Assembly (NCBI GenBank): GCA_012838135.1
Contig: DUPV01000060.1
Coordinates: forward strand, 22,498-86,497
Length of the DNA stretch: 64,000 bases
Source: Clostridiaceae bacterium
GTDB taxonomy: Bacteria; Bacillota; Clostridia; Saccharofermentanales; DTU023
Direction of reading: 5' to 3'
Below are positions 3,904-64,000 of the stretch, piece by piece. The notes beneath the pieces are model-generated. The model saw only the letters and a list, made by a program, of their open reading frames with translations. It had not been told where the DNA came from and searched no databases. Numbering within the stretch: position 1 is the first letter of the stretch; the number at the start of each line of letters is the position of its first letter. The position numbers and the translations under genes are program-made.

Positions 3904-3927
3904 ATTTCAAATTGTGTGTTTTAGATT

Positions 3928-19984: not shown

Positions 19985-20024
19985 TGAATCATTTAATAAT
20001 AAACACAAAGGAGTAATATAAATC

Positions 20025-40079: not shown

Positions 40080-40535
40080 ATGGATAAACAAGATATAAAA
40101 GATTTAATGCAACAATTTGATCGCAGTTCTCTAACTAAATTCAAATTTAAAAATACAGATTTTGAATTGAGTTTTACCAAAGAAATTAATGTTGATTTTT
40201 CACAAGCGGAGTTGACAAAAATGATGCAAGTAACACCTCAATCTGTTGCTGCTAATGCCGATTTTGAACAAGCTGAACCAGATAATTTAGTTGAAGTCAG
40301 ATCACCGATGGTTGGGACATTCTATGCTTCAGGTGAGGAAGGCGGTAAACCTTATGTTGAGATAGGTGACCAAATTAAAGCCGGTCAGATTGTTTGCATA
40401 ATTGATGTAATGAAGACAATGAATGAAATTCCGGCACCTGTCGATGGAAAAGTTGTCAGCATTCATGCTGAGGATGGTGAATTAATCGAATTTGATTCAT
40501 TATTAATGATATTGGATACTGAAAATGTTTCGTAA
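40080..40535 (+). CDS. accB: Biotin carboxyl carrier protein
   Basis: Biotinyl-lysine motif IDVMKTMNEI in a lipoyl-like C-terminal domain. Confidence 0.85.
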   Translation: MDKQDIKDLMQQFDRSSLTKFKFKNTDFELSFTKEINVDFSQAELTKMMQVTPQSVAANADFEQAEPDNLVEVRSPMVGTFYASGEEGGKPYVEIGDQIKAGQIVCIIDVMKTMNEIPAPVDGKVVSIHAEDGELIEFDSLLMILDTENVS

Positions 40536-41934
40536 GATCTTAATTGCCAATCGGGGAGAGATAGCGGTTCGCATCATGCGTTCATGCCGTGAAATGGGAA
40601 TTGAGACGGTGATGATCTATTCGACAGCGGATAAGCATGCATTGCATGTCCAATTGGCCAGGGAGGCTTATTGCATTGGCGGACCGGCACCGAAAGACAG
40701 CTATCTCAATATGCAGGCAATTCTCACAGTTGCCTTGGCAACAGGTTGTGAAGCGATTCATCCCGGTTACGGCCTTTTATCGGAAAACGCAGATTTTGCC
40801 GATATGGTAGAAGCAGCCGGTCTGAAATTCATAGGACCTTCCGGCAAGACGATTGATGTATTGGGCGATAAAGCCAATGCCAGACGTTTGATGATAGAAG
40901 CCGGTGTTCCTGTTCCTCCCGGTTCCGACGGAGTTTTAACCGATGTTCAACAGGCGATTGAAATTGCAAATCAAATCGGATATCCGGTCCTAATTAAAGC
41001 CTCCGCCGGTGGCGGCGGTCGCGGTATGCGCCGAGTTGATAGTGCGGAGCAAATGCTGCAAGCTTTTAATGAAGCAACTCTGGAGGCCAAAAGTGCATTT
41101 GGCGACGGGTCTTTATATCTGGAAAAATTAATTGAGAATCCGAAACATATTGAATTTCAGATATTGGCGGATCAACAAGGCAATGCAATCCATCTCGGAG
41201 ATCGTGATTGCTCATGGCAAAGACGCAAACAAAAAGTAATTGAAGAAACTCCATGTACCAGATTGTCCGATGATTTAAGAATTAAAATGGGAGAGGCTGC
41301 CATTCGTGCGATTAAATCTGTTGAATATGAGGGTGCAGGTACAGTTGAATTTGTTTTAGACAAGCAGCAAAATTTCTACTTCATAGAAGTAAATACCCGA
41401 ATTCAAGTGGAACACCCGGTTACTGAAATGGTAACCGGAATCGATATTGTGCGTGAACAAATTCGGATTGCCAACGGTGCCGGTTTACCGATTACGCAAG
41501 ATGAAATGCAAATTAAAGGTCATGCGATTGAATGTCGAATCAATGCGGAAAAGCCTTCGGATAACTTCAGACCGAGTCCCGGAAAAATAAACAACTATAT
41601 TATGCCGGGTGGCCGTTCGGTCAGAATCGACTCAGCAATATATCCCGGATATGAAATAAGTCCGTTTTATGATTCGATGGTGGCGAAAATTATTGTCCAC
41701 GGCAACAACCGTAGTCATGCGATCAGACGTATGCGCCGCTGTCTGGAAGAATTGATTATTGACGGAGTGGAGACCAATGCTGCTTTGCTTTATGTATCAC
41801 TGTTTGATCAATCAATGATTCGTGGAACTTATGACACTTCCACTTTAGAAAATAAATTAGATGAGTTGTTAAAATATGAAACCGTTTTTCATCTTCCGAC
41901 AGATGTGGAAATTAATGTTGAAGAAAACGAATAA
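40525..41934 (+). CDS. accC: Biotin carboxylase
   Basis: KILIANRGEIAVR, the ATP-grasp loop GGGGRGMR, and EVNTRIQVEHPVTE. Confidence 0.95.
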   Translation: MFRKILIANRGEIAVRIMRSCREMGIETVMIYSTADKHALHVQLAREAYCIGGPAPKDSYLNMQAILTVALATGCEAIHPGYGLLSENADFADMVEAAGLKFIGPSGKTIDVLGDKANARRLMIEAGVPVPPGSDGVLTDVQQAIEIANQIGYPVLIKASAGGGGRGMRRVDSAEQMLQAFNEATLEAKSAFGDGSLYLEKLIENPKHIEFQILADQQGNAIHLGDRDCSWQRRKQKVIEETPCTRLSDDLRIKMGEAAIRAIKSVEYEGAGTVEFVLDKQQNFYFIEVNTRIQVEHPVTEMVTGIDIVREQIRIANGAGLPITQDEMQIKGHAIECRINAEKPSDNFRPSPGKINNYIMPGGRSVRIDSAIYPGYEISPFYDSMVAKIIVHGNNRSHAIRRMRRCLEELIIDGVETNAALLYVSLFDQSMIRGTYDTSTLENKLDELLKYETVFHLPTDVEINVEENE

Positions 41935-41961
41935 TATTTGCATAAGAAAGGAAATCAGACA

Positions 41962-43674
41962 ATGAAAGATTTTTTTAATCTTAGGCGTAACCAACTGGAA
42001 AAAATGGATAAATTGACACGTTTAAGAGCTCCGGCAAAGAAAAAAGAGATTCCGGCAAATATTTTTACGGCTTGTCCTAAATGTGGAAAATCATTTACGC
42101 ATCAGGTTTGGCATGAAAATCTTTATGTTTGTCCGGAATGTAATAAACATCTTAGATTAGGTGTTAAAGCCCGTCTTAATCTCATTATGGATGACGATTA
42201 TGAATTTATTGATGAGCCGGCTGAATTCCGTAATCCGATCGATTTTCCGGGATATGAAGAAAAGTGGCGTAACGCATACGATAATACCGATGCTGATGAG
42301 GCGATTGTTTTTGTTAAAGGGACAATTGCTGAACAACCTTGTATTGTCGGTGTAATGGATACCAATTTTCTAATGGGTTCATTGGGCAGTATAGTCGGAG
42401 AAAGAATTATTAAAGCTTTGGAGCTGGCGACACAAGAAGAGCTGCCGGTAATAATATTTACGGCAAGTGGCGGAGCAAGAATGCAAGAAGCTATTATCAG
42501 TTTAATGCAAATGCGTTATGTTTCAGCTGCTGTAGGCAAGTTCCAACGTGCCGGAGGTTTATATATTACAGTAATGACCGATCCGACAACCGGTGGAGTT
42601 ACTGCGAGTTATGCCTCTTTGGGTAATATTATTTTGACGGAACCTGGCACTTTGATTGCTTTTGCCGGACCGCGGGTGATTCGCGATACAATCAAAGAGG
42701 AATTACCTGAAGGTTTCCAAACTGCTGAACATTTGGAAAAACGTGGTTTTGTAGATCGGATTATTGAACGAAAAGACATTAAAATAAGTTTAGCAAAGTT
42801 GCTGAAAATGCATAACAGCAAACAGGTAAAAGTGGAATTTTCAGATGCCGACTTAGAACCCCTCAGATGTTTGATCAATGATAAAAAATTAAACGAACAA
42901 AAATCCGACAATTTAACAGCTTTTGAACGGGTTAAAATGGCACGCGATCCTGATCGGATCAGTCCGAAGCAAGTATTGGAATATCTTTGTTCGGATATTT
43001 TTGAATTACGAGGAGATCGCTTATACGGTGATGATCAAACGATTTGCGGCGGACTTGCCTCTCTTGGCGGCTTGCCGATAACGTATATCTATACGCAAAA
43101 AGGTGACGATCTGGAAAGCCGAATAAAATTGAATTTTGGAATGCCGCATCCTGAAGGTTATAGAAAAGCCCGACGTTTAATGCAAGAAGCAGAAAATTTC
43201 GGTCGACCGATTCTGACAATTATTGATACTCCGGGGGCATACCCGGGCATAGGTTCGGAAAACAGGGGAATGGGTGAGGCTATTGCCCAGAATTTGAGAT
43301 TCATGTCAGCTCTGAAAACACCGACTATAGCTTTGATTACCGGTGAAGCCGGCAGTGGCGGAGCGATAGCTCTGGCATGTACGGATAAATTATTTATGCT
43401 CGAAAATGCAGTCTATACAATTTTGTCACCTGAGGGTTTTGCAACCATTCTCTGGAAAGACGTTTCAAGAGTAGAAGAAGCATCAACCAATATGCGTTTA
43501 ACAGCTGAGGATATGTATGAATTACAAGTGTGCGATCAGATTTTTCCGGATGATTTGACGGGCTTGAAACGAGCAATTGCAGATACATTTAACCAATTGT
43601 TGGAAGAAAAAGCGAATCAAATGCCGGAAGAAAAAATTATTCAATTGATGAAAAAAAGTCTAATCAATTTTTAG
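41962..43674 (+). CDS. accD-accA: Fused acetyl-CoA carboxylase carboxyltransferase, beta (AccD) and alpha (AccA) in one polypeptide
   Basis: N-terminal half has the Zn ribbon CPKCG..CPECNKH and ASGGARMQE. C-terminal half has IDTPGAYPG and GEAGSGGA. There is no stop between the halves. Confidence 0.85.
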   Translation: MKDFFNLRRNQLEKMDKLTRLRAPAKKKEIPANIFTACPKCGKSFTHQVWHENLYVCPECNKHLRLGVKARLNLIMDDDYEFIDEPAEFRNPIDFPGYEEKWRNAYDNTDADEAIVFVKGTIAEQPCIVGVMDTNFLMGSLGSIVGERIIKALELATQEELPVIIFTASGGARMQEAIISLMQMRYVSAAVGKFQRAGGLYITVMTDPTTGGVTASYASLGNIILTEPGTLIAFAGPRVIRDTIKEELPEGFQTAEHLEKRGFVDRIIERKDIKISLAKLLKMHNSKQVKVEFSDADLEPLRCLINDKKLNEQKSDNLTAFERVKMARDPDRISPKQVLEYLCSDIFELRGDRLYGDDQTICGGLASLGGLPITYIYTQKGDDLESRIKLNFGMPHPEGYRKARRLMQEAENFGRPILTIIDTPGAYPGIGSENRGMGEAIAQNLRFMSALKTPTIALITGEAGSGGAIALACTDKLFMLENAVYTILSPEGFATILWKDVSRVEEASTNMRLTAEDMYELQVCDQIFPDDLTGLKRAIADTFNQLLEEKANQMPEEKIIQLMKKSLINF

Positions 43675-43766
43675 AATAAAATATAGTTAACAGATAGGGT
43701 AGTTAGAAAAAAGCCTAATCGTTTGATGGCAGAAACTAATTAATTGTCAGAAGAAAAGAGGATAGA

Positions 43767-44708
43767 ATGGGCGTTAGTTTGATAAGTGCAGCAAGATATT
43801 TGCCAAAAGGCAGTTTAACCAATTTTGATTTGGAAAAAATGGTTGAAACCAGTGATGAGTGGATTCAGCAAAGGACCGGTTTAATTTCCCGGACAATCGC
43901 TGAAGATGAAACGATTGCGGACATGGCAATTAAAGCCGGTACTAAATGTTTAGAAAATGTAGCTCCGGAAATTAAAGACAAGATCAAGATTTTAATTGTG
44001 ACCACAGCTTCTTATCTGCAAGTTGTACCGCATGTTTCATCGGAAATTGTTGAACCGTTAGGATTAAACAAGGATATTTTGGCATATGACTTAAATGCCG
44101 GATGTACAACTTTTATTTATGCGCTTAATACAGTTGAAAGGTTCTTAACCGAACCCGGGGACTATGCTTTGATCGTATCTTCAGATAAATTAAGTGATTA
44201 TATCGACTATACGGATCGCGGAACTTGTATTTTATTCGGTGACGGTGCAGCGGCAACACTTTGGGGATATGCGCAAGCAACGGATTATTATTCAATTAAT
44301 CAAACTATAACCAATCCTGAAGTTCTTTACCGTGAAGGGAAATATGTTCATATGAACGGAGCGGAAATATTTAAATTTGCCGTGGGTACTTTGCCTGGTT
44401 TAATCGAAGATGTTTGTGCAAAAGGTAATGTCGCAATTGAAGACGTGGATTTATTTCTTTTACATCAAGCAAACGGTCGTATTATTGAGTCTGTAGCTCG
44501 TAAATTAAAAATTGATAATGAAAAATTCCCAGTCAGATACCAAAATATTGGCAACACATCATCACCGAGCATCCCGATTTTGATGACTCAATTGATGGAT
44601 GAAAATATATTGCAAAAAGCAAAAAACATAGTTTTAGCCGGTTTCGGTGCCGGATTAAGTTTAGGCATTGTTTTATTGAAAGGAAACGGACAATATGTGG
44701 TTAAGTGA
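43767..44708 (+). CDS. fabH: 3-oxoacyl-ACP synthase III
   Basis: Catalytic triad contexts NAGCTTF, LHQANGRI and GNTSSPS. Confidence 0.9.
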   Translation: MGVSLISAARYLPKGSLTNFDLEKMVETSDEWIQQRTGLISRTIAEDETIADMAIKAGTKCLENVAPEIKDKIKILIVTTASYLQVVPHVSSEIVEPLGLNKDILAYDLNAGCTTFIYALNTVERFLTEPGDYALIVSSDKLSDYIDYTDRGTCILFGDGAAATLWGYAQATDYYSINQTITNPEVLYREGKYVHMNGAEIFKFAVGTLPGLIEDVCAKGNVAIEDVDLFLLHQANGRIIESVARKLKIDNEKFPVRYQNIGNTSSPSIPILMTQLMDENILQKAKNIVLAGFGAGLSLGIVLLKGNGQYVVK

Positions 44709-45639
44709 AAAATTCAATTTAAAATATCCGGTAATATCAGGCGGCATGGCAAATATCAGTACAGCCGTTTTTGCAGCTGCGGTAAGTAATGCGGGAGCTC
44801 TCGGAATGATCGGTACCGGTGCCTGGACAGCTGATCAGGTAAGAGCTGAAATCAGAAAAGCAAGAGAATTAACTGATAAACCTTTTGGTGTCAACTTGAT
44901 GTTGATGAATCCGCATTCGGAAGAAGTTTCAGATGTTGTAGTGGAAGAAGGTATCAAAGTAGTCACAACCGGCGCCGGCAATCCGGCCCCTTATATAGAT
45001 AAATGGCATGAAGCAGGAATTTCGGTCATACCGGTAATTTCTTCACTATCCCAGGGTGAACGTATGCAAAAATTGGGTGTCGATGCTGTTGTCGGTGAAG
45101 GCCAGGAAGCCGGTGGACATATCGGCGATTCAACTTCGATGATCCTGTGGCCTTTATTAGCGAAAAATCTTGATATACCGGTAATCGGTGCAGGTGGTGT
45201 GGCATTAGGCAGTCATATTATTGCCGGTCGTGTTTTAGGCGTTCAGGGTTTTCAATTAGGTACTTTGTTGCTTTCAGCAGAAGAATGTCCGATTCATGAC
45301 GGTTTCCGCGAACAATTACTTAAAGCCCGTGACTCACAAATTACAGTTGTCGGTCGTGCCGGTGGCGGTATGCCAACCAGAATTATGAAGAATCCTTTAG
45401 CCAGAAAATATATACAATTTGAAAAAGAAAACAGACCGAAAGAAGATTATGAGCAAATCATGAATGGTGCTTTGAAGAAAGCTGTTTTCTATGGCGATAA
45501 AAATGAAGGATGTTTCATGATGGGCTTGGTAGCTTCTTTAATCGATGAAATCAAACCGATGGAAAAAGTATTAGCTGATTTGTTTGCAGAAGCTGAAGCC
45601 GAATATGCAAGAATTAAAACAGAGGATATTTTAGCATGA
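44695..45639 (+). CDS. fabK: Enoyl-ACP reductase II (FMN-dependent, FabK type)
   Basis: YPVISGGMA, KPFGVNLML, VVTTGAGNP and QEAGGHIG closely resemble streptococcal FabK. Confidence 0.85.
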   Translation: MWLSEKFNLKYPVISGGMANISTAVFAAAVSNAGALGMIGTGAWTADQVRAEIRKARELTDKPFGVNLMLMNPHSEEVSDVVVEEGIKVVTTGAGNPAPYIDKWHEAGISVIPVISSLSQGERMQKLGVDAVVGEGQEAGGHIGDSTSMILWPLLAKNLDIPVIGAGGVALGSHIIAGRVLGVQGFQLGTLLLSAEECPIHDGFREQLLKARDSQITVVGRAGGGMPTRIMKNPLARKYIQFEKENRPKEDYEQIMNGALKKAVFYGDKNEGCFMMGLVASLIDEIKPMEKVLADLFAEAEAEYARIKTEDILA

Positions 45640-46586
45640 AAAAAGTATTTCTTTTTGGGGGACAGGGTAGTCAATTGCCCGGAATGGCATTGGATATACG
45701 TCAGGAGTTTCCTCAAACCGAAGAACTCTTTCAAACAGCATTCAATGTGAATCCGGATTTAGAGAAAGTGTTGCAGAGCGGATCAGAAGATATTAATCAA
45801 ACCAGATTCACACAAGCGGCAATTGCTTTATTCGGGGCAGCAATGACTTATATTTTAAGTGAAAATGGTATTGCAGCAGATGCTGCAATCGGTTCAAGTA
45901 TAGGTGAATATCCTGCACTTGCTGCACTTGGTGTCTGGTCTTTAACCGATATGATCAAAATTGCATCCGCTCGCGGCAGTCTGATGACAGAACGATTAAA
46001 TAGACGCAAAGCTGAAGGCTATTCAGATGGTATGCATGCAGTACTGGGTCTGACTGAAACTACGATTGCACCTTTGCTTAAAAAATATGATCAAATATGG
46101 ATTACAAATATCAATGATGAACACCAGGTGGTAATCAGCGGTCAGACTGAGCAATTGGCTGAACTTAAAGCAGAACTTAAACAAGCCGGGGCACGCAGAA
46201 TTGTACCCTTAGCTGTAGAAGGAGCCTTCCACACACCGATTTTTGAGGAAGAACAAAAAGAATTGTTGAATATCATTGAACAATATCCGCTAACCGTTTT
46301 ACAAAAAGAATTCTACTTTAATCGTAATGCTGAACCGTTATATGATACTTCAATCTCGGCTGATCAGCAGCAAAGAAATGTTCAACTCCGGATGTCCGAA
46401 CAAATGATTTCACCGGTCAGATTTTACGAATGTGGTGAGAAACTGTTCACAGATAATGAATTTGATTTGGCGATCGAAATTTCGGCAAAACCGGTTATAG
46501 CAGGAATGTTGAGAAGAAAACTGAAGAATATTCCAACTGTACAAATCAATTCGGCAGAACAGTTGAAAGAGTTTTTACAACAATAA
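45636..46586 (+). CDS. fabD: Malonyl-CoA:ACP transacylase
   Basis: FGGQGSQ, the active-site GSSIGEY, and GAFHT. Confidence 0.9.
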   Translation: MKKVFLFGGQGSQLPGMALDIRQEFPQTEELFQTAFNVNPDLEKVLQSGSEDINQTRFTQAAIALFGAAMTYILSENGIAADAAIGSSIGEYPALAALGVWSLTDMIKIASARGSLMTERLNRRKAEGYSDGMHAVLGLTETTIAPLLKKYDQIWITNINDEHQVVISGQTEQLAELKAELKQAGARRIVPLAVEGAFHTPIFEEEQKELLNIIEQYPLTVLQKEFYFNRNAEPLYDTSISADQQQRNVQLRMSEQMISPVRFYECGEKLFTDNEFDLAIEISAKPVIAGMLRRKLKNIPTVQINSAEQLKEFLQQ

Positions 46587-46602
46587 AGAAAGGTTAGCTT
46601 AA

Positions 46603-47340
46603 ATGGAAAAAGAAATTGTATTAGTCACAGGTGGTGGTACAGGTATCGGTCAAGCCATTTGCGAACAATTGGCAAACCCTGATAGACACATTTATATACA
46701 TTATGGCGGTTCACAACAAGGTGCTGAACAGACTTTGAGTTTAGTAGAGGCCCAAGGCGGATCAGGTGAAATTATTCAAGCCGATCTCAATGACAGCACG
46801 CAAATTACTGCAATGATTCAAAAAATCAAAGAACAATCAGGTCGTTTGGATATTCTGGTTAATAATGCCGGGATTACTAAAGACGGTTTGGCAGTTCGGA
46901 TGTCTGATCAAATGTATGACGATGTAATCAGAGTTAATCAAAAAGCGGTTTTTGTCACGATGCGGGAAGCCGGTAAACTCATGATGCGTCAAAGAAAAGG
47001 CAAAATTATCAATATCAGCAGTGTCGTGGGTTTACACGGTAATGCCGGTCAGATTAATTATGCGGCAGCCAAATCAGCAGTTTTTGCCATGAGTAAATCT
47101 TTGGCACAAGAATTGGCTACCAGAAACATTACGGTTAATTGTGTTGCGCCGGGCTATATTAATACGGCAATGACGGACGAGTTATCCGACCAGGTTAAAG
47201 AGGCAATTATCAGTCAAATTCCGATGCAAAGAACCGGTGAACCGAAAGAAGTTGCTTATGCAGTAAAGTTTTTGGCAAGCAGGGAAGCCGATTATATCAC
47301 GGGACAAAGCATTTCTGTTGATGGCGGAATGAACATGTAA
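46603..47340 (+). CDS. fabG: 3-oxoacyl-ACP reductase
   Basis: SDR motifs TGGGTGIG, NNAG and YAAAK. Confidence 0.9.
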   Translation: MEKEIVLVTGGGTGIGQAICEQLANPDRHIYIHYGGSQQGAEQTLSLVEAQGGSGEIIQADLNDSTQITAMIQKIKEQSGRLDILVNNAGITKDGLAVRMSDQMYDDVIRVNQKAVFVTMREAGKLMMRQRKGKIINISSVVGLHGNAGQINYAAAKSAVFAMSKSLAQELATRNITVNCVAPGYINTAMTDELSDQVKEAIISQIPMQRTGEPKEVAYAVKFLASREADYITGQSISVDGGMNM

Positions 47341-47354
47341 AAGGAAGGCTAATT

Positions 47355-48593
47355 ATGGATAATAGAGTAGTTATAACAGGTATTGGTTTAGTCACCCCGC
47401 TGGGAATTGATCGTGAAACAACATGGCAGAATCTTAAAGACGGAAAGGTCGGGATTACCGAACTTACCAGATTCAGTGCGCCGGAGATTGATGTACATGT
47501 AGCCGGTCAGATTCATGATTTTAATACAAAAGAATATTTTGATCATAGAACAGCACGTCGTATGGATCCTTTTACACAATATGCGGTAGTTGCTGCCAGA
47601 GAAGCTTTTGTACAAAGCGGACTGAATGACGCTGAATTCGATCGTGATCGAGTTAATGTTATTGTATCCACCGGTATTGGAGGAATTATAACATTGGAAG
47701 CGAATAAAGTAACCGGCGAAGAAAAAGGCTATAACAGAATATCACCTTTCTTTATTCCGATGGCAATAGCAAACATGGCTTCTGCAGCCATTTCCATGGA
47801 GTTCGGTCTGCATGGTCACTCCTCTTCGATTATTACAGCTTGTGCCGGCGGTACTGATGCCATCGGTGAATCTTATCGCCAAATTAAGCACGGGTATACG
47901 GATGTAGCAATTACCGGAGGTACGGAAGCAACAATTACACCTCTATGTATCGGTGGATTTGCTGCGATGCGAGCTTTATCCACATCCAAAGATCCTTTAT
48001 CCGCCTCAAGACCTTTTGATAAAGATCGTGACGGTTTTGTCCCAAGTGAAGGTGCCGGAATTCTGATTCTTGAATCATTGGATCATGCTTTGGCAAGGAA
48101 AGCACCGATTATTGCGGAAATTATCAGCTATGCTACAACCAGCGATGCATACCATATAACAGCTCCGGATCCCGAAGGTACTCAAGCAACCAGAGCGATG
48201 CAAGAATGTATGAATTTTGCCGGTCTTGAACCGACGGATATCGATTATGTTAATGCTCATGGGACATCAACACCGTTAAATGATACAATTGAAACTCAAG
48301 TTATCAAAAATGCACTTGGCGAACATGCGTATAATGTAAAAATATCATCTACCAAATCCATGTTAGGACATGCTTTAGGTGGCAGCGGTGCTATAGAACT
48401 TTCAGTTGCGGCTCTAACCATTCGTGATCAATTTATCCATCCGACCATGGGCTTGAAAGAAGCTGATCCGGAATGCGATTTGGACTATGTACCGGGCAAA
48501 GGGCAATCACATCAAGTTAACACTGCAATCAGTAATTCGCTAGGTTTCGGCGGACATAATGCCTGTATCGCAATCAAGAAATTCAACGGATAA
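47355..48593 (+). CDS. fabF: 3-oxoacyl-ACP synthase II
   Basis: Active-site contexts ACAGGT, NAHGTSTP and GHALGGSG. Confidence 0.95.
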   Translation: MDNRVVITGIGLVTPLGIDRETTWQNLKDGKVGITELTRFSAPEIDVHVAGQIHDFNTKEYFDHRTARRMDPFTQYAVVAAREAFVQSGLNDAEFDRDRVNVIVSTGIGGIITLEANKVTGEEKGYNRISPFFIPMAIANMASAAISMEFGLHGHSSSIITACAGGTDAIGESYRQIKHGYTDVAITGGTEATITPLCIGGFAAMRALSTSKDPLSASRPFDKDRDGFVPSEGAGILILESLDHALARKAPIIAEIISYATTSDAYHITAPDPEGTQATRAMQECMNFAGLEPTDIDYVNAHGTSTPLNDTIETQVIKNALGEHAYNVKISSTKSMLGHALGGSGAIELSVAALTIRDQFIHPTMGLKEADPECDLDYVPGKGQSHQVNTAISNSLGFGGHNACIAIKKFNG

Positions 48594-55299: not shown

Positions 55300-55526
55300 A
55301 TATTGAAAATAAATATTTGTTTTAAAACACTCATACATCATAAAGTTTAAATATTCATTTTGTATATTTTAAAGCAAGATTACTATTACAAAATAATCTC
55401 TGATTTCAGTTATTGTTGCAACGATTTTACAGACATAATAAATCTGCATCACGTACCGGTTTTCTTGTTCTGAAGAGCTTTTTAACATGTTAAAATAATT
55501 TTTACAACAAATGTTTGGAGTGGCGG

Positions 55527-57584
55527 ATGAATAAAGAACGTGCGAAAAATATCAGTACAATTATTATTGCTGTTTTTTTGTTAAGCATAATTCCTTTTAC
55601 TTTGCTTCTTAATCGAGAAACCGTAGCTGAATTGAATTTTCCGATTGAAGCAAAAGTTATTGCCATGCCCAGCCTTAACATCAGAAAAACTCCTGATTTA
55701 TCGCAAAATCCGATTGGTTCAATTCCTGCAGGTCAAGAGATTCTGCTTTTAGAACATACTGAAGGTCAGGCAATTAACGGTGATACAAATTGGTACAGAA
55801 TTGATTTCAGAAACCAGGATGGCTATGTTTCTGCCCAATTTATTGAATTTTCACCTTGGGAGATTGAGTTGCCACCGACAGCAAACGATCAGGATTTTGA
55901 AAACTATCTCGAAGAGCAGGGTTTTCCTTTTTCTTATCGAGCCGGATTACATAAATTACATAAAAAATATCCGAATTGGGTTTTTACACCGATCAAATTA
56001 AATATCGATTTTAGTTCTGCAGTCAATGGACAGTATAAGCCTGACAGTTCAATTAATTTCGTTCCTGCTGCATCAGAGGATGCTTTAAAATCAACCTCGT
56101 CAGCAGATTTTAACAAGGAAGCTAATCAATGGATTGAGAAAGAACGAGGTTGGGTTGCCGCAAGTAAAGAAATAATTGCTCATCAGCTTGACCCGAGAAA
56201 TTTTTTAGATGAACAGCATATCTTTCAATTTGAAAGTTTGAGCTATAATCCGGATGTTCAAAATTGGCAAGGTATTCGCAGTCAACTGACAGGAACGTTT
56301 ATGGATTCAGATGAATATGCAGATATTTTCTATAATGCAGCAGTGACTTCATCAGTATCCCCCTATCATTTGATTGCCAGAGTCAGACAAGAAGTATCAC
56401 CTAATGGTTCCGGCTCTTCAAGCGGCACTTATCCCGGCGTTGAAGGTTATTACAACTTCTTTAATATCGGTGCATATGGTACGGATCCGGTCTATGAGGG
56501 TTTAGTCTTCGCTCGGGACGGTTACAAAAACAATCCTGCAGCTAACGAGCGAATTATGATTCCTTGGAATACACCTGAAAGATCGATTACGGGGGGAGCT
56601 ATCTTTTTAGGTAATGATTATATTAATAATTTGCAAAACACTTTGTATTTTCAAAAATTCGACTTAAGACATGGTCCGGATTATTGGCACCAATATATGG
56701 CAAATGTATTTGCTCCGCAAAGTGAATCACGTACAATCTATCATGCTTATGCAGCGCAAGGCAGTCTGGCTGAGCCGAAGGAATTTTTAATTCCGGTATT
56801 TACTTCAATATCTGATTTGCCGACACCTTATCCAACCGGAGGTTTGGGCACACCAAATAACTGGTTGCGTTCAATCTCAATTGACGGAGCGTTATTGCCC
56901 GGCTTCGAGAGCTCTACCTATTCATATCAGCTGGAAGTAGATGCACCGAATTCTGAAATTACAATAGATGCAACACCATATAATCCTTATGCCGAAGTTA
57001 CCGGTCGAGGATCTTATTTTTTAAAAGAAGGCAAAAATCCGATTTTAATTGCGGTTACTGCAACCAACGGTTCAATTCGCAATTATGAAATAATTATCAA
57101 TTATCATGGCGGAACAACGGCAGAAGTTCCGCGAGTAGAGAGTTCTGTTTATCAAATCCAACCGGATGGTAATATTTACGGTTTGGATTTTACCCGGAAT
57201 TTAAACCTGGTAGAAAATGCTTTAAGCAATATAACAACTACAGATCAATATACATTGAGTATAGTTGATCTTGCTGATCAGGAAGTGACTCAAGGTTCAA
57301 TTGCCACCGGATATAAACTATTACAAAAACAAAACGGCAATGTAGTAGGTAAATATACATTTATCATATTGGGCGATGTGAATCGTGACGGTGATGTTGA
57401 TGTTTTGGACGTGGATTCGATATATCGATACATCACAGGTTTTTTGAATCTGGATGATACGCAGCTGCTTGCTGCAAATGTTTTACAAGATTCGGAAGTA
57501 GATATTTTGGATGCAGATCAGATTTATCGTTCTGTAGTCGGCTACACAAAAATTTCTCAATATTTAGAACCGTTATCCGAGTAG
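55527..57584 (+). CDS. Membrane-anchored peptidoglycan hydrolase: SH3b, GH73-like glucosaminidase, cadherin-like beta-sandwich, C-terminal dockerin
   Basis: SPYHLIARVRQE..YNFFNIGAYG..TLYFQKFD (glucosaminidase), LRSISIDGALLPGFESSTYSYQLEV, and dockerin repeats GDVNRDGDVDVLDVDSIYRYI / ANVLQDSEVDILDADQIYRSV. Confidence 0.75.
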   Translation: MNKERAKNISTIIIAVFLLSIIPFTLLLNRETVAELNFPIEAKVIAMPSLNIRKTPDLSQNPIGSIPAGQEILLLEHTEGQAINGDTNWYRIDFRNQDGYVSAQFIEFSPWEIELPPTANDQDFENYLEEQGFPFSYRAGLHKLHKKYPNWVFTPIKLNIDFSSAVNGQYKPDSSINFVPAASEDALKSTSSADFNKEANQWIEKERGWVAASKEIIAHQLDPRNFLDEQHIFQFESLSYNPDVQNWQGIRSQLTGTFMDSDEYADIFYNAAVTSSVSPYHLIARVRQEVSPNGSGSSSGTYPGVEGYYNFFNIGAYGTDPVYEGLVFARDGYKNNPAANERIMIPWNTPERSITGGAIFLGNDYINNLQNTLYFQKFDLRHGPDYWHQYMANVFAPQSESRTIYHAYAAQGSLAEPKEFLIPVFTSISDLPTPYPTGGLGTPNNWLRSISIDGALLPGFESSTYSYQLEVDAPNSEITIDATPYNPYAEVTGRGSYFLKEGKNPILIAVTATNGSIRNYEIIINYHGGTTAEVPRVESSVYQIQPDGNIYGLDFTRNLNLVENALSNITTTDQYTLSIVDLADQEVTQGSIATGYKLLQKQNGNVVGKYTFIILGDVNRDGDVDVLDVDSIYRYITGFLNLDDTQLLAANVLQDSEVDILDADQIYRSVVGYTKISQYLEPLSE

Positions 57585-57599
57585 TATTTAGGAGATAAT

Positions 57600-58925
57600 A
57601 TGCGCAAATATATGAAACAATTATTTTTATTCATAATAAGCTTGTTGTATCTCGGGGTTTTGATGGTCCGTCCGGTTTACGCTGCGGGTGCGGAATTCGT
57701 CATATCAGCGGAAAATGCATCTCCCGGTGATACCGTTACGGTTTCAATTGTAAATAACAGCGGTATAGCAGTTACTTCAGGTCAATTTGATTTAGTGTAT
57801 GATTCGGAGCGTTTTGAACTTGTGGGGGCAACTTTGTTTCAGGAAAGTGCAATGCCGTTTTATCTTGAAGAAGGCAGAACTGATAAATTCAGAATATCTA
57901 CGATACCTCTTACACCGAATCAGGCATATGCCGAACAGGTTATTGCATCAATTACTTTTAAGTTAAAAGATTCAGCAGATGGTCAAGCAACTTTTGAATT
58001 AGTAAAATCAAAAATCGGTTATGGCAATATTTATGAAAATGTTCAAAATTTGGAAGTTAGCGGAACAACCGTAGGCGTAAAAATTATGAATCCTGAACCG
58101 GGTGAACCGGCTGATCAGGGAATGGAAATTTCTGAAAAACCTGATCCGGATCCGCCACAACAGCCGACAGAAGATGAGCATTTGCAACCGTCAGAGCCTA
58201 AGCCGACCGAATCAACTGAACCGACCGAATCAACTGAACCAAACGAGCCAACGGAATCGAGCAAGCCGACTGACTTGAATGAGTTGACCGAACCGACCAA
58301 GCAGGAACAGCCAATTGTGACTTCTCAGCCGGACGGATCGGCAAAATCTGGCGATGATGTTACAACTAATCAATCAGACAATGAAAACAGAGAAACCAAT
58401 ACGACAACTTCTGAAGTTCTAAAGATTGCGACTGATGCTACAACACAAGATGAAATAAGAATTATTTCTACATTGGCACCCGCTGATACACAGACAACAC
58501 CTGCTCAGATTACGGAGCAGGCGATGAGTCGAACTGTGGTGCATACTGTTGAGACCGTGCCGACAATTGCTCTGGCTGTAATTACTTCTGCCGAAACGGA
58601 AGAAGTGTTGCAAAATAATACGCAAACTATGACCGAGCAATCTCAAACAATTACTACTAAAACTGAAACGACTACGAGTGCTGCAACTGAAAAAACGACT
58701 CCTGCAACTGTGCAGCAAATTATGGAAAATAGTCAAAATACTGAATTAAATTCAATTAATATAGAAGAACAGAAACAAGCTAAACAAGAACAAGCTTTTG
58801 AATTGACAGGTAATGAATTAAATATTAATAATAAACTTATGGTGGGAGGCTTGGCTATTACGGCAATAAGTTCCTTAGGAGCTCTGATTTTTTTAATCAT
58901 CAAAAATAATCTCAGACTAAGGTAG
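57600..58925 (+). CDS. Cohesin-domain protein with P/T/E-rich stalk and C-terminal membrane anchor
   Basis: Signal peptide ..VRPVYAAGA. Cohesin-like FVISAENASPGDTVTVSIVNNSGIAVTSGQFDLVYDSERFELVG. C-terminal TM helix LMVGGLAITAISSLGALIFLII. Confidence 0.7.
   Translation: MRKYMKQLFLFIISLLYLGVLMVRPVYAAGAEFVISAENASPGDTVTVSIVNNSGIAVTSGQFDLVYDSERFELVGATLFQESAMPFYLEEGRTDKFRISTIPLTPNQAYAEQVIASITFKLKDSADGQATFELVKSKIGYGNIYENVQNLEVSGTTVGVKIMNPEPGEPADQGMEISEKPDPDPPQQPTEDEHLQPSEPKPTESTEPTESTEPNEPTESSKPTDLNELTEPTKQEQPIVTSQPDGSAKSGDDVTTNQSDNENRETNTTTSEVLKIATDATTQDEIRIISTLAPADTQTTPAQITEQAMSRTVVHTVETVPTIALAVITSAETEEVLQNNTQTMTEQSQTITTKTETTTSAATEKTTPATVQQIMENSQNTELNSINIEEQKQAKQEQAFELTGNELNINNKLMVGGLAITAISSLGALIFLIIKNNLRLR
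58203..58292 (+). repeat. 18 bp in-frame tandem repeats encoding PTESTE-like hexapeptides
   Basis: ccgaccgaatcaactgaa occurs twice exactly (58203-38), followed by three degenerate units. Confidence 0.8.
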
Positions 58926-58946: not shown

Positions 58947-59402
58947 ATGAGTAAAGCAGTCTTGGAAAAATTCCGTCAACGTGAATTTATTCTGTACTTA
59001 ATCAGTGGAATAATTGTTACGTTAACGAATTGGATAACTTATTATCTATTAGAGAATTTAGTTGAATTTGCCAATTGGCGAATTTCGAATATTATTTCAA
59101 TAGGTTTTTCAATTTTCGTTGCATATCTTTTGAACCGAATTTTTGTTTTTCACTCTGAACAAAATATTTTTCCGGAAATATTTAAATTCTTTGTTTCAAG
59201 ATTTTTAATATCTTTGATTTTTGAGCATGGGCTAATGGAACTTCTTCTCACAGTAATCGGTTTTGACCCGAGAATATTAATATTTGGTTATGAATTCCAA
59301 GTTGTAAAAGTCTTAGGTTCAGTATTTGTAGTTTTGGCAAATTATTTTGTCAGCAAATATCTGGTATTTAGAAAAAGTAAAAGCAAAATAAAGGAATCAT
59401 GA
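58947..59402 (+). CDS. GtrA-family membrane protein
   Basis: 151 aa with four TM helices. Shows ..LNRIFVF.. and a C-terminal ..NYFVSKYLVFRK typical of GtrA-like proteins. Confidence 0.7.
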   Translation: MSKAVLEKFRQREFILYLISGIIVTLTNWITYYLLENLVEFANWRISNIISIGFSIFVAYLLNRIFVFHSEQNIFPEIFKFFVSRFLISLIFEHGLMELLLTVIGFDPRILIFGYEFQVVKVLGSVFVVLANYFVSKYLVFRKSKSKIKES

Positions 59403-61030
59403 TAATGGGCATGAACGTTTGGAAAAAAAGGTATAAAAGCAGAAATGGTGAAGGTATATACTGGTCTTTAGAAAAATCACTTGAATATTTGGCTGAAGCC
59501 AGAAAGTTTGGGATTAGACCCGGTTTGGCAAGAATTGAACAATTGTTAGAACGTTTAGGGAATCCGCAAAATGCTTGTCCGGTTATTCACATTGCAGGAA
59601 CTAACGGAAAAGGCTCAATCAGTTCTATGTGTGCTTATATCGCAGCAAATTCCGGTTTGCGTACAGGTCTTTTTACTTCACCGTATTTAACAAATTTCAA
59701 CGAACGGATTCGCATTATTGACGGACATGAAGGAATTCAAAATCTATATAAAGATGCACGTTCATCAGAAATCAGTGATGAAGATTTTGCTAAAACTTTA
59801 ATGTTAATTGCTTATGAAGTAGAAATCATGAGTGTCAGAGGTTTTGACAGACCGACCGAATTCGAAATGATCACAGCTGCTGCATTCGTATATTTTGCAG
59901 AAATGCGTTGTGATTTGGTCGTATTGGAAACCGGCATGGGTGGCAGACTGGACTCAACAAATGTTGTAGAAGAACCGCTTGCGACAATTATTTCGGCTTT
60001 GAGTTATGATCACACAGGCAGATTAGGCAGTACAATCTCAAAAATTGCTGCGGAAAAAGCCGGAATCATGCGACCGAATGTACCTGTTTTCGTGTATAAT
60101 CCTTATGATACGGAATTGACAGAATCAGATGCAGCTATTGTTAAACAAACATTATCAGAACACGCAAAAAATGTTAATGCACCGTTATCAATAGTCAATA
60201 GATCGGATATTGAATATCAATCGTCATATTTAACAGGTCAGACTTTTACTTATAAATCTGCCGGACCTTTCCATCTTCAATTAAGCGGTGACTATCAAGC
60301 TCAAAATGCGGCGTTGGCAATTGAAGCTTGTCGTTTGATTATCAAAGATGAAAATTTAATTCAGAGTGGTATTTCTTTAGCAAAATGGGCGGGGCGTTTG
60401 GAGTGTATTTCACAAGCGCCTTTTATTTTGATTGACGGAGCTCACAATAAGCAAGGAGTTTACGGTTTGAGGCAACATCTGGAAAAATTCCTCAAAGGTC
60501 ATAAATTAGTTATTTTAGCGGGTGTTTTACACGACAAAGACTATAAAGCAATGTTGGATATTATTTGCAGTTCTGAACTTTATGATATTGCTGAAATAAT
60601 TTGTACTAGTCCGGATTTCCCGCGTGCTCTTAAAGCAAAGAATTTGGCTGTTGAATTTGCTAAACATTATAATCAAAAAAATTCACGTACTAAATTCCGA
60701 GAAGAGTCACAAAATAAATTTCTAGAGAAATCAGATATTGATTCACGAGATAATTTTTACGATCAATTACCAAACAAGTCACAACTCAAAACACAAAACA
60801 AGCCTCGGGATAAATATCAAATCAAGGAAATAACTGAACTGGAATCGAAAGAAATTCCTTTGTATAATGAAAATCGGATTTGGTTTACGTCTGACAGAAA
60901 AGCAGCAACTGAATTTGCTTATGGATTAGCATGCAAAAAACGCTTGCCGCTGGTTATGTTTGGTTCGCTTTATTTGCTTGGTGAAGTCAGACCCTATTTA
61001 CTTGATTTATTGGAGGGATTAGATAATTGA
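59399..61030 (+). CDS. folC: Folylpolyglutamate synthase / dihydrofolate synthase
   Basis: Mur-ligase P-loop HIAGTNGKGS, plus LETGMGGRLD and IDGAHN. Carries a ~80 aa K/N/Q-rich insertion near the C-terminus. Confidence 0.85.
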   Translation: MIMGMNVWKKRYKSRNGEGIYWSLEKSLEYLAEARKFGIRPGLARIEQLLERLGNPQNACPVIHIAGTNGKGSISSMCAYIAANSGLRTGLFTSPYLTNFNERIRIIDGHEGIQNLYKDARSSEISDEDFAKTLMLIAYEVEIMSVRGFDRPTEFEMITAAAFVYFAEMRCDLVVLETGMGGRLDSTNVVEEPLATIISALSYDHTGRLGSTISKIAAEKAGIMRPNVPVFVYNPYDTELTESDAAIVKQTLSEHAKNVNAPLSIVNRSDIEYQSSYLTGQTFTYKSAGPFHLQLSGDYQAQNAALAIEACRLIIKDENLIQSGISLAKWAGRLECISQAPFILIDGAHNKQGVYGLRQHLEKFLKGHKLVILAGVLHDKDYKAMLDIICSSELYDIAEIICTSPDFPRALKAKNLAVEFAKHYNQKNSRTKFREESQNKFLEKSDIDSRDNFYDQLPNKSQLKTQNKPRDKYQIKEITELESKEIPLYNENRIWFTSDRKAATEFAYGLACKKRLPLVMFGSLYLLGEVRPYLLDLLEGLDN

Positions 61031-61956
61031 ATTGGCAAAAACAATATCAATTTTTTGAAGAATTAACGATAGATCAGGTGGGGTTGTTTGCGACACCGCG
61101 CGAATTAGAAAAAGCTCTTATGACCTATAATCGAGCTCTGGATTTGTTGAAATCAGGTAAGCAAAATCAAGCAATTCCGATGTTAAAGACAGTAGCTGAT
61201 GATTATCCGATGTTCTCATATGCTTCACATCTTTATGGCACTGTGATGGCTGCACAAAAAGATTTCAAACAAGCGAATGACTATTTCAAAAAAGTTGCTC
61301 TGTTGGACATTGACCAAGATCAAGCTGATTTGTTGCAACAACAGATGAAACTTGTTGCTCATGAAATAAATTTGCTTGAACATCAAGAAAGCTTGCTGAA
61401 AAAACGAAATGCTGCATACAGCTCAGTTAAAAAAGAAATTTCTATTGCGGATATTTTGGAAAAGGCACCGCGTAAAAAATATGTTTCCGGTGCAAACAAA
61501 GAAGAAATAGCTTTGATAAATCGTCAATTAGGTAATGAAGATCCTGCTGATTTATCCGGTGAAATGGCTTTGGAAGATCGCAAAGCAAATTTGAAGTTTG
61601 CTGCAATTGTTGTTGCAATTGCGGGAATAGTTTTTTTAATTTTTTATTTTGGTATTAGACCGGTTATTTTGAATTATCGTACGGAATCTAACCAATCTCT
61701 TAAGCATTTGCAATGGTTGGAACGAGAAATGGAATCCAGAGCAGAGCAAGGTCAAATGGAAATTCAAAAATTATTGACGGATTATCTAAACAATTATTCT
61801 ACCTCTGAACCGGCTGATTCAACGAAAGTAACTGATATATCCGATACAACAATCCGGGAGTCTTCTGATAAAACAAGCCAAGAATCTGTCGAACCAACAG
61901 CAGAGGAATCTACTCAAGAGGCAACAGAAGAATCTGCGGTTGAAACCGGAGAATAG
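61027..61956 (+). CDS. Hypothetical bitopic membrane protein with a possibly TPR-like N-terminus and an acidic S/T/E-rich tail
   Basis: TTG start overlaps the folC stop (TTGA). Central TM helix FAAIVVAIAGIVFLIFYFGI. No catalytic motif seen. Confidence 0.5.
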   Translation: MNWQKQYQFFEELTIDQVGLFATPRELEKALMTYNRALDLLKSGKQNQAIPMLKTVADDYPMFSYASHLYGTVMAAQKDFKQANDYFKKVALLDIDQDQADLLQQQMKLVAHEINLLEHQESLLKKRNAAYSSVKKEISIADILEKAPRKKYVSGANKEEIALINRQLGNEDPADLSGEMALEDRKANLKFAAIVVAIAGIVFLIFYFGIRPVILNYRTESNQSLKHLQWLEREMESRAEQGQMEIQKLLTDYLNNYSTSEPADSTKVTDISDTTIRESSDKTSQESVEPTAEESTQEATEESAVETGE

Positions 61957-61965
61957 GAGAATAAA

Positions 61966-63627
61966 ATGCAATATCAATCGACGATTCAAGCAAGCAGAAA
62001 ATATACATTTTCTCAAATGCTGCGTGAAAGTGTGCCAATGCACGGAGGACTTTTTGTGCCTTGTGAATTGCCGAAGATTGACCAGGATTTCCTCAATCAA
62101 TTAAAACCGCTCTCTTTTCAAGCTCGGGCAGCCTGCATAATTCGATTATTTGCGCCTGAATTATCTGAACCGCAAATTAATCAAATATGTCAAACAGCAT
62201 TTAATCCGATGCATTTTCAATCAGAATTACTTTATGAAGCAAAACCGCTCAATCCATATTTAACCAACCCTTTATTTTTGTTTGTTGAGCGTGGACCTAC
62301 AAGTTGTTATATGGACTTAACTCATGCATTCAGTTTAGCTTGCCTGCAAACAGTGATGCAAGAAAATGAACAATGGCTTGTAATGACCGGTGAATCGTTG
62401 CAAAGTATTAAAAGTTTGGTTGCTTTGCATCTTGATGATTCGGCATGGGTTCCTGTCTTAATTACTGATAGTAAAGCAACCAACACTTATATTCTGAAAG
62501 AAATCCAACATATGCACAGTGTGGCAGCTCGATCTCAATATCGCTTATCCTATGCATTTTCTGACAAGGATTCAAATGATATGCCAAAACAAAATAAATT
62601 GGCTGTTGAGATGCCGATTATAGGCGATGCAGATGAATCGGAAAAAATAACAAATGATAATTTTAGCGAGCATGACGGTCGATTAAAATTGTACACAATC
62701 AACGGTAGAGTTCAAGATGTAGAATATTTTACACAAAATTTATTTTATCAAGAAAAACTTCGTTTAAGACTTAAAGAACAAAACAAATTTCTCGCAGCCA
62801 CGGGAAGTTTGTCCTTTACTCATCATTTAGCACTGATCATCATATTGCTATCGGCTTATTTGGATTTATTGAAGCAAGAATTAATTGCTGACAGCGAAAA
62901 TTTTTGCTTAGCCTTCCCCAATATGAATCTTGATTTCCTATATGCCGGTCAACTTTTGCAAAAAATGGGTTTGCCGGTGTCAAACTTGATTGCTGCATCC
63001 AATAGCAATCGGGCAATTGATGATTTTCTGCGTCAGGGAAAATACAAATTGAAACGCAGATTTTCACGAACTACTGCACCGGCTCTTGATCAAATCTATT
63101 TACCGAATTTGGAACGAGTCCTGTTTGAGATTACTGAGCATGATTGTCAAACAACATATCAAATAATGACAGATTTATTTAAATTCGGACGGATCAATTT
63201 AGTTCCTGAAATTAAGCAGAAACTTTCTGACTTGATTCAATCAGGTTATGCCAACAATAACCAAATTATAGAACAAATTCGAAATTGGTATCTAAGGACA
63301 GATTATCTTTTTGATCCGTATACGGCTTTAGCTTTAATTGTATTGGAGCGTTTTGAGCAAAGTCTATCAAATACAAACAAAACGATTGTGCCTGTGATTG
63401 AGAGTCCGTTATTGTCTGTTCAAGTTACAGCTGAGGCAATTATTGAACAAGACAAAAACATTAAAATGAATTACAATCGCTTACTGGAGGCACTATCTGA
63501 AGAATCCGGCATTGAAATTCCTTTGGCTGCTCTTTCCGGTGAACAAAAACCGGAAGTCATCAACCTTGATATTGAACAGATGAGTGAGCGTATTCAGGCA
63601 GATTTACTCAAGATTGGTCAAAACTGA
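61966..63627 (+). CDS. Threonine-synthase-like protein lacking the PLP lysine (probable pseudoenzyme)
   Basis: Thr_synth_N-like YQSTIQ..HGGLFVPCELPKI. Colinear with long-type ThrC, but GPTLAFKD is replaced by GPTSCYMD, and SGDTG and SGNFG are replaced by GESLQ and NMNLD. Confidence 0.65.
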   Translation: MQYQSTIQASRKYTFSQMLRESVPMHGGLFVPCELPKIDQDFLNQLKPLSFQARAACIIRLFAPELSEPQINQICQTAFNPMHFQSELLYEAKPLNPYLTNPLFLFVERGPTSCYMDLTHAFSLACLQTVMQENEQWLVMTGESLQSIKSLVALHLDDSAWVPVLITDSKATNTYILKEIQHMHSVAARSQYRLSYAFSDKDSNDMPKQNKLAVEMPIIGDADESEKITNDNFSEHDGRLKLYTINGRVQDVEYFTQNLFYQEKLRLRLKEQNKFLAATGSLSFTHHLALIIILLSAYLDLLKQELIADSENFCLAFPNMNLDFLYAGQLLQKMGLPVSNLIAASNSNRAIDDFLRQGKYKLKRRFSRTTAPALDQIYLPNLERVLFEITEHDCQTTYQIMTDLFKFGRINLVPEIKQKLSDLIQSGYANNNQIIEQIRNWYLRTDYLFDPYTALALIVLERFEQSLSNTNKTIVPVIESPLLSVQVTAEAIIEQDKNIKMNYNRLLEALSEESGIEIPLAALSGEQKPEVINLDIEQMSERIQADLLKIGQN

Positions 63628-63959
63628 ATTTTAAAAACGTTCTTTAAGCCTTGTTCGCGGCATTTGTGAAAGAGTAGCGGTAATACTGAACCCGGATAAA
63701 AACGTATTATCAAATTCCCGGAACTGAACTAACATCATCAATTGAGATAGAACCCATCGGGCATGCTTTGGCACAAGCTTTATAATCTAACCTTTGAGAT
63801 TATTCTATAAGATTACACATAAATTACTGCAAATAAAAATTGTGCTATACTGTCTAGGTTAAGATGAATTAATTGATTTTATAGAAAGCCAATATCTATT
63901 AATGATTGCTTTGTATAGTTTTTAATATAGCAGAAATTTGAAATTGTTTGGTGGTATTT

Positions 63960-64000
63960 ATGAAAAAAATTAAAAGTAGATTTCCCGAAATCAGCAAAAT
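63960..64000 (+). CDS. 5' end of an unidentified gene that runs off the right edge
   Basis: ATG lies 5 nt after GGTGG. MKKIKSRFPEISK.. Too short to classify. Confidence 0.3.
   Translation, partial: MKKIKSRFPEISK

Follow-up and report, generated by a model that had tools for sequence, protein, structure and literature searches.

In a stretch of 64,000 nucleotides from a Clostridiaceae bacterium (contig DUPV01000060.1), in the following referred to as the window, we analysed a gene at positions 61966-63627 of the forward strand encoding a 553-amino-acid homologue of threonine synthase (ThrC), in which the catalytic lysine of this pyridoxal 5'-phosphate (PLP)-dependent enzyme is replaced. Taken together, the open reading frame (ORF), its homology to ThrC, a structure model and the ratio of nonsynonymous to synonymous substitution rates (dN/dS) lead us to regard the product as a pseudoenzyme on the ThrC fold, which probably acts as a non-catalytic binding subunit of the neighbours it is co-translated with. 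The ORF starts with ATG and is preceded by a Shine-Dalgarno sequence, AGGAG (61955-61959), overlapping the stop codon of the preceding gene.

The ORF is unambiguously a full-length homologue of long-type ThrC. Aligned with hhalign, a profile of its family is colinear with 20 canonical ThrCs over residues 1-550 (probability 100%, E 1e-59), and phmmer searches against the PDB retrieved S. pneumoniae ThrC (8g1y, E 6e-36, spanning residues 241-522), the yeast enzyme (1kl7, E 1e-18) and, as further matches, ThrC structures of Burkholderia, Brucella and E. coli. The N-terminal domain is retained, the Pfam model PF14821 (Thr_synth_N) covering residues 2-79 (61969-62202, forward strand) with 49.6 bits at a cut-off of 25. 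The canonical relatives carry PF00291 (PALP) and PF24857 (THR4_C) in addition to PF14821; for these two models the Pfam scan of the window protein returned nothing at E<=1, and the NCBIfam equivalog model for thrC, TIGR00260, reached 39 bits and thereby stays below its cut-off of 167.1. The predicted structure keeps the ThrC fold overall: the AlphaFold2 model, calculated from an alignment of 13 sequences, has a predicted local distance difference test score (pLDDT) of 85.6 and a predicted template modelling score of 0.87, and a Foldseek search with it returned 8g1y as top match (E 1e-30, TM-scores 0.80/0.88), the six best PDB matches all being ThrC. An original prediction, made from the letters alone, had proposed the colinearity with long-type ThrC, which hhalign, phmmer and PF14821 bear out, and had named profile comparison and structure prediction as ways to follow it up; the former yielded a matched PF14821 next to an unmatched PF00291 and the latter a ThrC fold.

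The catalytic motifs were compared in alignments made with MAFFT and with hhalign, both methods agreeing at all positions discussed and reproducing the motif correspondences of the original prediction, including those at the N-terminus. The degenerate Schiff-base block ERGPTSCYMDL (residues 108-118; 62287-62319, forward strand) lies opposite WHGPTSAFKD, and Met116 (codon 62311-62313) occupies the column of the catalytic lysine, as had been predicted. Across 15 sequences of the family this column holds Met, Thr, Leu or Gln and never Lys, so that the alignments place no lysine at the PLP position. The sequence GESLQSIK (62389-62412) replaces ATSGDTGK, AATGSLSFTH (62794-62823) stands opposite SSANSINWGR with ATGSLSFTHH facing SANSINxGR, and FPNMNLDFL (62914-62940) stands opposite VPTGNFGNI, all on the forward strand; in the latter, PTGNFG has become PNMNLD and Asp323, found at a glycine position, is invariant in the family. 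Also, the C-terminal TAxPxKF block is replaced, TASPxKF reading IESPLLS, and GLPVSNLIAASNSNRAIDDFLRQG of the window protein aligns opposite GLPVNRLICASNRNNVLTDFFESG of canonical ThrC. We take TSGDTG to be the 'asparagine' substrate loop of fold-type-II enzymes, SANSINxGR to be the motif for the phosphate of the substrate O-phosphohomoserine, as in short-type ThrC structures, and PTGNFG to be the glycine loop for the PLP 5'-phosphate, as in fold-type-II and short-type ThrC structures. The earlier statement that both phosphate-loop motifs are lost therefore stands in so far as SGDTG and SGNFG are both degenerate, and needs correction in so far as SGDTG is presumably a substrate rather than a phosphate loop.

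A position-by-position comparison of eight diverse family members with 29 other Lys-less proteins and 112 canonical ThrCs extends this picture. The residues of TSGDTG and SANSINxGR, conserved to 91-97% in canonical ThrC, are lost in the family and in the other Lys-less proteins, as are nearly all canonical motifs of the central PLP domain, and the comparison revealed no alternative conserved lysine among the Lys-less proteins. GGLFVP and neighbouring residues of the N-terminal domain are common to the family, the other Lys-less proteins and canonical ThrC, the arginine of the STR motif being Ile7 within the subclade of the window gene. Best conserved, judged from the phmmer match to 8g1y and the conservation table, is the C-terminal half (residues 331-522; 62956-63531, forward strand), retaining GLP, ASNxN, DF, R364, TxxPxxD375, NLER and Y..Y..D450. 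Clade-specific conserved residues appear as well (LNPY, E388, R392, D446, E513 and G515), and among 13 family members Y115 and D117 never vary, and FPNxNLDFLY and E143 hardly do. With these replacements, we infer that the protein would be able neither to form an internal aldimine nor to hold the phosphate of PLP and so would make no threonine. The predicted ThrC fold, the lost motifs and the failed matches to PF00291 and TIGR00260 thus support the earlier view of a retained fold with lost PLP chemistry, as far as this can be read from the sequence.

The gene is under purifying selection and is not a decaying pseudogene. We calculated dN/dS by the Nei-Gojobori method for the window gene against five orthologues and for those orthologues among themselves, a check of orthologue conservation that had been suggested with the prediction, and obtained values of 0.10-0.18 at dS ranging from 0.66 to saturation; a 98%-identical pair gave 0.44, a value arising from just 16 substitutions. 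In the same genomes folC yields 0.15-0.17 and the gene of a tetratricopeptide repeat (TPR)-like transmembrane protein, described below, 0.07-0.22. As the ratio, 0.12-0.18 over 10+ pairs, is low and equal to that of folC and of the TPR-like protein gene, the protein must be functional. Among the regions of the gene, the N-terminal domain has a dN/dS of 0.11, the former PLP core one of 0.135 and the C-terminal half one of 0.16. Intact ORFs occur in 11 species, at identities as low as 36%.

The predicted acidic insertion of about 45 residues is present at residues 192-240 (62539-62685, forward strand), as defined by pLDDT, isoelectric point and alignment. With 11 Asp/Glu against 6 Lys/Arg and an isoelectric point of 4.5 it is mildly acidic, and residues 192-237 have a pLDDT <50 and are predicted to be disordered. 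It is absent from the three next-closest species (P0002, P0003 and P0006) and differs in length and sequence in other members, which share only [DE][DE]F just before the next strand. FolC and a cohesin protein of the same organism likewise bear low-complexity inserts. We read the insertion as a tolerated expansion of a surface loop. In FolC, a K/E/Q/N-rich low-complexity insert of about 70 residues, KHYNQKNSRTKFREESQNKFLEKSDIDSRDNFYDQLPNKSQLKTQNKPRDKYQIKEITELESKE, lies at residues ~425-495, the protein having 543 amino acids compared to 464-500 in relatives.

A word-indexed search identified 13 relatives at 98-36% identity, all matched by PF14821 only, followed by canonical ThrCs at 24-25%. 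The family occurs in 11 metagenome-assembled genomes (MAGs) among 185,579 species represented by one genome each; these MAGs, which derive mostly from anaerobic digesters, carry the labels Saccharofermentanales, Mageeibacillus or 'Clostridiaceae bacterium'. An exhaustive profile search covering 1.8 billion representatives of 50%-identity clusters placed five family clusters at 855-377 bits, followed by a continuum from 242 bits downwards. We aligned the best 150 representatives, about 45 of which have no lysine in the catalytic column, showing L, Q, M, T, H, A, R, F, D, E, P or Y instead, and most of these lost other motifs too, each lineage in a different manner; P0019 is almost canonical apart from Lys->Gln. 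When 21 diverse Lys-less proteins were combined into a profile, a word-indexed search gave 12 matches. The name given to Lys-less proteins is 'hypothetical protein' and once, presumably wrongly, 'threonine synthase'. The window protein appears to be part of a deep, Lys-less clade of ThrC-like proteins: in a neighbour-joining tree of the best 150, built as all our trees without bootstrap, it falls into a clade of 36 tips, 33 of them Lys-less, irrespective of whether the motif windows are removed, long-branch attraction being a possible contribution at such divergence. The taxonomy of the wider clade is taken from contig names. Three proteins grouping with this clade in the neighbour-joining tree, P0021, P0027 and P0043, keep the lysine, have lost the glycine loop (LPDGHLAEL in P0021) and contain large inserts. 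The gene of P0021 (locus L025) is not beside folC and is flanked by genes for a glycogen phosphorylase and a tRNA-methyltransferase-like protein; the gene of canonical P0022, which keeps the lysine, is likewise not beside folC.

The gene is the last of a tightly packed group of four on the forward strand. It is preceded by a gene for a small membrane protein of the GtrA family (58947-59402; PF04138, 56 bits), by folC, encoding a 543-residue member of the folylpolyglutamate/dihydrofolate synthase family (59399-61030; TIGR01499, 315 bits at a cut-off of 162.65), and by a gene at 61027-61956 for a protein of 309 residues, here called X, that has an N-terminal TPR-like region with weak TPR matches, one transmembrane helix and a low-complexity tail. 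The gtrA/folC and folC/X pairs overlap by 4 nucleotides each and a gap of 9 nucleotides separates X from the ThrC-like gene, confirming the predicted close packing with folC and a membrane protein. The order gtrA-folC-X-ThrC-like is shared by all 11 genome loci and by the 98% relative L016. In the narrow family it is part of a longer block comprising genes for PcrA, an HD dGTPase-like protein, an HD_3 protein, an SH3_3 wall hydrolase and a cohesin protein ahead of the four. A scan for promoters and terminators over 55-64 kb gave the same counts as shuffled sequence.

The arrangement extends beyond the narrow family. Seven out of seven distant Lys-less representatives (P0017, P0019, P0020, P0024, P0068, P0070 and P0189) are encoded directly downstream of folC or gtrA-folC, with an orthologue of X at four of these loci; X separates folC from the ThrC-like gene in L001, L004, L017, L019, L020 and L024. 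Three loci representing three Lys-less lineages (L018, L022 and L023) have no X and encode a GtrA with an N-terminal extension, for which BLAST detected no similarity to the TPR-like transmembrane protein. In L018 and L022 GtrA is a separate protein extended by additional transmembrane segments. In L023 (5483-7900, forward strand) it is part of an 805-residue GtrA::FolC fusion with the GtrA transmembrane domain at residues 177-300 and, behind it, Mur-ligase M and C domains of the FolC type, and this fusion gene is located directly upstream of the gene for the Lys->Gln protein P0019. In the Lys-less clade gtrA is always upstream of folC, and of all neighbours GtrA/FolC alone recurs at each of the loci examined. 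The fusion suggests that FolC is tethered to the membrane in this clade.

For control, we scanned metagenome contigs with an alignment of canonical ThrC, yielding 80 canonical loci, 50 of them with at least 3 kb of upstream sequence. At only two of the 50 assessable loci, L046 (163-4870) and L048 (2088-6494), is folC found upstream of canonical ThrC, and both show gtrA, folC, a homologue of X (full-length blastp E 1e-7 to 1e-9 with the window protein) and then ThrC; L048 in addition carries a convergent gene for release factor RF3, as do L001, L004 and L020. In these two ThrCs all catalytic motifs are intact (ELWHGPTAAFKD, ATSGDTGKA, SSANSINWGRL, VPTGNFGN, DTHTA and TASPFKF), and their named close relatives come from Saccharofermentans sp., Clostridiales and Oscillospiraceae. 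The operon with an intact ThrC therefore makes the window gene a positional orthologue of a genuine thrC. At the gtrA-folC-X locus, catalysis has apparently been lost and the gene kept, the sequences pointing to an orthologue rather than a stray paralogue. In L046 and L048 a gene of threonine biosynthesis is located in a gtrA-folC-TPR/transmembrane operon rather than with hom and thrB. Canonical thrC, hom and thrB were not found within the 64-kb window, judged by Pfam searches of 40 other ORFs and the genes of the locus. The sole other fold-type-II PLP enzyme of the window is an intact cysK at 23388-24290 on the reverse strand (TIGR01139, 389 bits at a cut-off of 351; PF00291, 252 bits), this cysteine synthase A indicating that the organism makes PLP and uses it in a fold-type-II enzyme.

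These data are best explained by descent of the gene from the thrC of an ancestral gtrA-folC-TPR/transmembrane-thrC operon in Clostridia of the Saccharofermentanales type. In the lineage of the window and its relatives the Schiff-base lysine, the substrate loop, the putative O-phosphohomoserine phosphate motif and the putative PLP-phosphate glycine loop have been lost, the fold, the N-terminal domain and the C-terminal half remaining under purifying selection. The protein would then serve as a scaffold or regulator of FolC, itself tied to the membrane via GtrA, with the TPR-like membrane protein as a possible further partner where it is present. Points of coupling are the overlaps of 4 nucleotides and the Shine-Dalgarno sequence overlapping the upstream stop codon, and the GtrA::FolC fusion of L023 speaks for a joint action of the two proteins at the membrane. 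A protein-binding role is favoured over a shared ligand because residues of the pocket vary, whereas the N-terminal domain, the C-terminal half and the clade-specific residues are shared. The second role may even predate the loss of catalysis and have been present in the catalytic ancestor, which may be the reason why the gene was retained. That ThrC had an older, non-catalytic role tied to a membrane-associated GtrA-FolC module is, however, a tentative idea about which we are rather doubtful. If true, this role would explain the position of canonical thrC in the gtrA-folC-TPR/transmembrane-thrC operon, and the Lys-less clade would constitute a natural 'separation-of-function' series displaying the moonlighting role in pure form.

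Three observations weigh against a binding subunit. X cannot be an obligatory partner, as it is absent from L018, L022 and L023. In the narrow family the synteny from PcrA to the ThrC-like gene is long, so that adjacency alone provides a weak functional linkage there. Moreover, the six windows of the former motifs have the lowest dN/dS of all regions in the subclade of the window gene (0.054). The latter fits a remodelled ligand pocket and hence a protein that binds a small molecule in a PLP-free cleft, and either signals to neighbouring functions or sequesters the molecule for them, a reading we consider unlikely. Such a pocket could be lined by Y115, D117, E143, N319, N321 and D323, in line with the invariance or near-invariance of FPNxNLDFLY, Y115, D117 and E143 in the 13-member family and with the canonical residues kept in the C-terminal half (N346, N348, R364, T369, D375 and NLER). 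However, buried core segments evolve slowly whatever the function, and across the Lys-less clade the pocket positions vary, the equivalent of the glycine loop reading SNDLDF, MLDPGF, SSDLSN or AFDLHR; because these positions differ between the Lys-less lineages, one shared ligand is not to be expected. Exporter genes would suit a metabolite sensor, and in L024 (9788-11103, forward strand) genes for ThrE and ThrE_2, together a putative threonine/serine exporter, follow 5 nucleotides after the gene of P0017, but this neighbourhood occurs at one locus only.

Strong purifying selection and polar cleft residues conserved within the family would also be expected of an active enzyme performing a new, PLP-independent chemistry on the ThrC scaffold. 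We judge this very improbable: no candidate catalytic constellation is conserved across the Lys-less clade, the only invariant residues being D117, G335 and D450, all three common to canonical ThrC, and no case of a fold-type-II PLP enzyme working without its cofactor is known to us. It is harder still to believe in a gene on its way out, i.e. the recently inactivated and functionless thrC of a threonine auxotroph. Recent inactivation is possible at this locus, as seen from the near-canonical P0019 with its Lys->Gln change, and the ThrC-like gene is one of those in the block that evolve faster (identity of 36-40% compared to 46-58% for FolC), but dN/dS values of 0.12-0.18 at dS up to saturation, intact ORFs of 500-600 codons in 11 species and in dozens of 50%-identity clusters, and the newly conserved clade-specific residues LNPY, E388, R392, D446 and E513 speak against decay. 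Equally hard to credit is a still PLP-dependent threonine synthase using another lysine or non-covalently bound PLP, for although K149 is nearly invariant in the family and aligned with the lysine of TSGDTGK, the latter is not the Schiff-base residue and K149 is not conserved in the wider clade, while an invariant D323 stands where the replaced PLP-phosphate glycine loop had a glycine, Asn and Arg of the substrate-phosphate motif have disappeared, PF00291 has no match and the 39 bits for TIGR00260 fall short of its cut-off of 167.

The binding-subunit reading, which we prefer, can be set against known systems. With long-type (class II) ThrC, represented by 8g1y, yeast Thr4 (1kl7) and the E. 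coli enzyme (1vb3), the window protein shares colinear homology, the predicted fold, PF14821 and the motifs of the C-terminal half, and with the canonical ThrC of L046 and L048 its position in the operon. Unlike long-type ThrC, it has replacements of the lysine, both substrate motifs, the PLP loop and TAxPxKF, and contains a disordered acidic insertion. By descent and predicted fold it thus belongs to the ThrC superfamily and appears to fail every functional criterion of the enzyme family that we tested. THNSL1 and THNSL2 of vertebrates are also repurposed ThrC homologues, which make no threonine in their host; they keep the PLP lysine, THNSL2 being an active phospho-lyase, and are not known to be linked to folC. 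Pseudoenzymes in general likewise combine an enzyme fold without catalytic residues with purifying selection. Unlike pseudoenzymes derived from duplicated paralogues, however, the dead ThrC-like copy is a positional orthologue of the enzyme. Our literature searches found no description of a Lys-less ThrC homologue, a ThrC-derived pseudoenzyme or a linkage of folC and thrC.

In this rare and clean case the whole active site has been lost, under continued selection and across deep divergence, from the positional orthologue of an enzyme of core biosynthesis rather than from a spare duplicate. The series at one locus from canonical ThrC via the Lys->Gln protein P0019 to fully degenerate forms offers a tractable system to study a PLP fold without PLP. 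For annotation, genes of this type are called 'threonine synthase' by at least one source or are matched only by the N-terminal Pfam domain, so that threonine prototrophy may be wrongly scored when the metabolism of digester or gut Clostridia, among them Saccharofermentanales and Mageeibacillus-like ones, is reconstructed. A further question raised is the reason for the coupling of FolC to a GtrA-type membrane protein, which in one lineage goes as far as a fusion.

Several minor observations concern ThrC relatives and the surroundings of the gene. P0018 (675 residues) combines a canonical, Lys-containing ThrC with an N-terminal extension of about 165 residues bearing the P-loop GPPGCGKS; by eye we take this extension to be shikimate-kinase-like and the architecture to possibly resemble that of vertebrate THNSL1. 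P0066, P0093 and P0139 (~650-675 residues) are similar to P0018 in length and match positions, and by tree distances such kinase-like fusions do not approach the window protein more closely than the remaining canonical ThrCs do. As a small membrane protein, a Mur-ligase-type enzyme and a membrane-anchored protein occur together, we also considered a poly-gamma-glutamate system of the PgsB/PgsC type; this was rejected, the ligase passing TIGR01499 (315 against 162.65 bits) and the membrane protein being GtrA and not CapC.

Downstream of the ThrC-like gene, an ORF at 63958-64000 of the forward strand begins after about 330 nucleotides and leaves the window at its edge. At the corresponding position the 98% relative L016 has a gene for an S11 D-Ala-D-Ala carboxypeptidase (3287-4378), an S11 gene overlaps the stop codon of the ThrC-like gene by 8 nucleotides at the locus of P0020, and in other relatives a convergent gene for RF3 (prfC) intervenes. 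Just upstream of gtrA, two genes for surface proteins occupy 55515-58925 of the forward strand. The first encodes 689 residues with SH3_3 and a weak match to the peptidoglycan glucosaminidase SagB, its relatives containing a dockerin, and the second encodes 441 residues with a cohesin domain, a long T/E/P/Q-rich region and a C-terminal transmembrane helix. In L013 both genes are absent and gtrA-folC-X-ThrC-like is kept.

Farther away in the window, 40080-48593 of the forward strand contains a cluster for fatty-acid synthesis encoding biotin carboxylase, a fused carboxyltransferase, FabH, an enoyl reductase of the NMO type, FabD and FabF, which is ordinary and unrelated to the ThrC-like gene. 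A region at 19313-22678, also on the forward strand, encodes a VTC-domain protein, a DUF4956 protein and two overlapping ORFs of the CotH kinase family (20677-21552 and 21473-22678); the CotH model is matched in its N-terminal part by one of them and in its C-terminal part by the other, and the pair could represent a split or frameshifted CotH gene.

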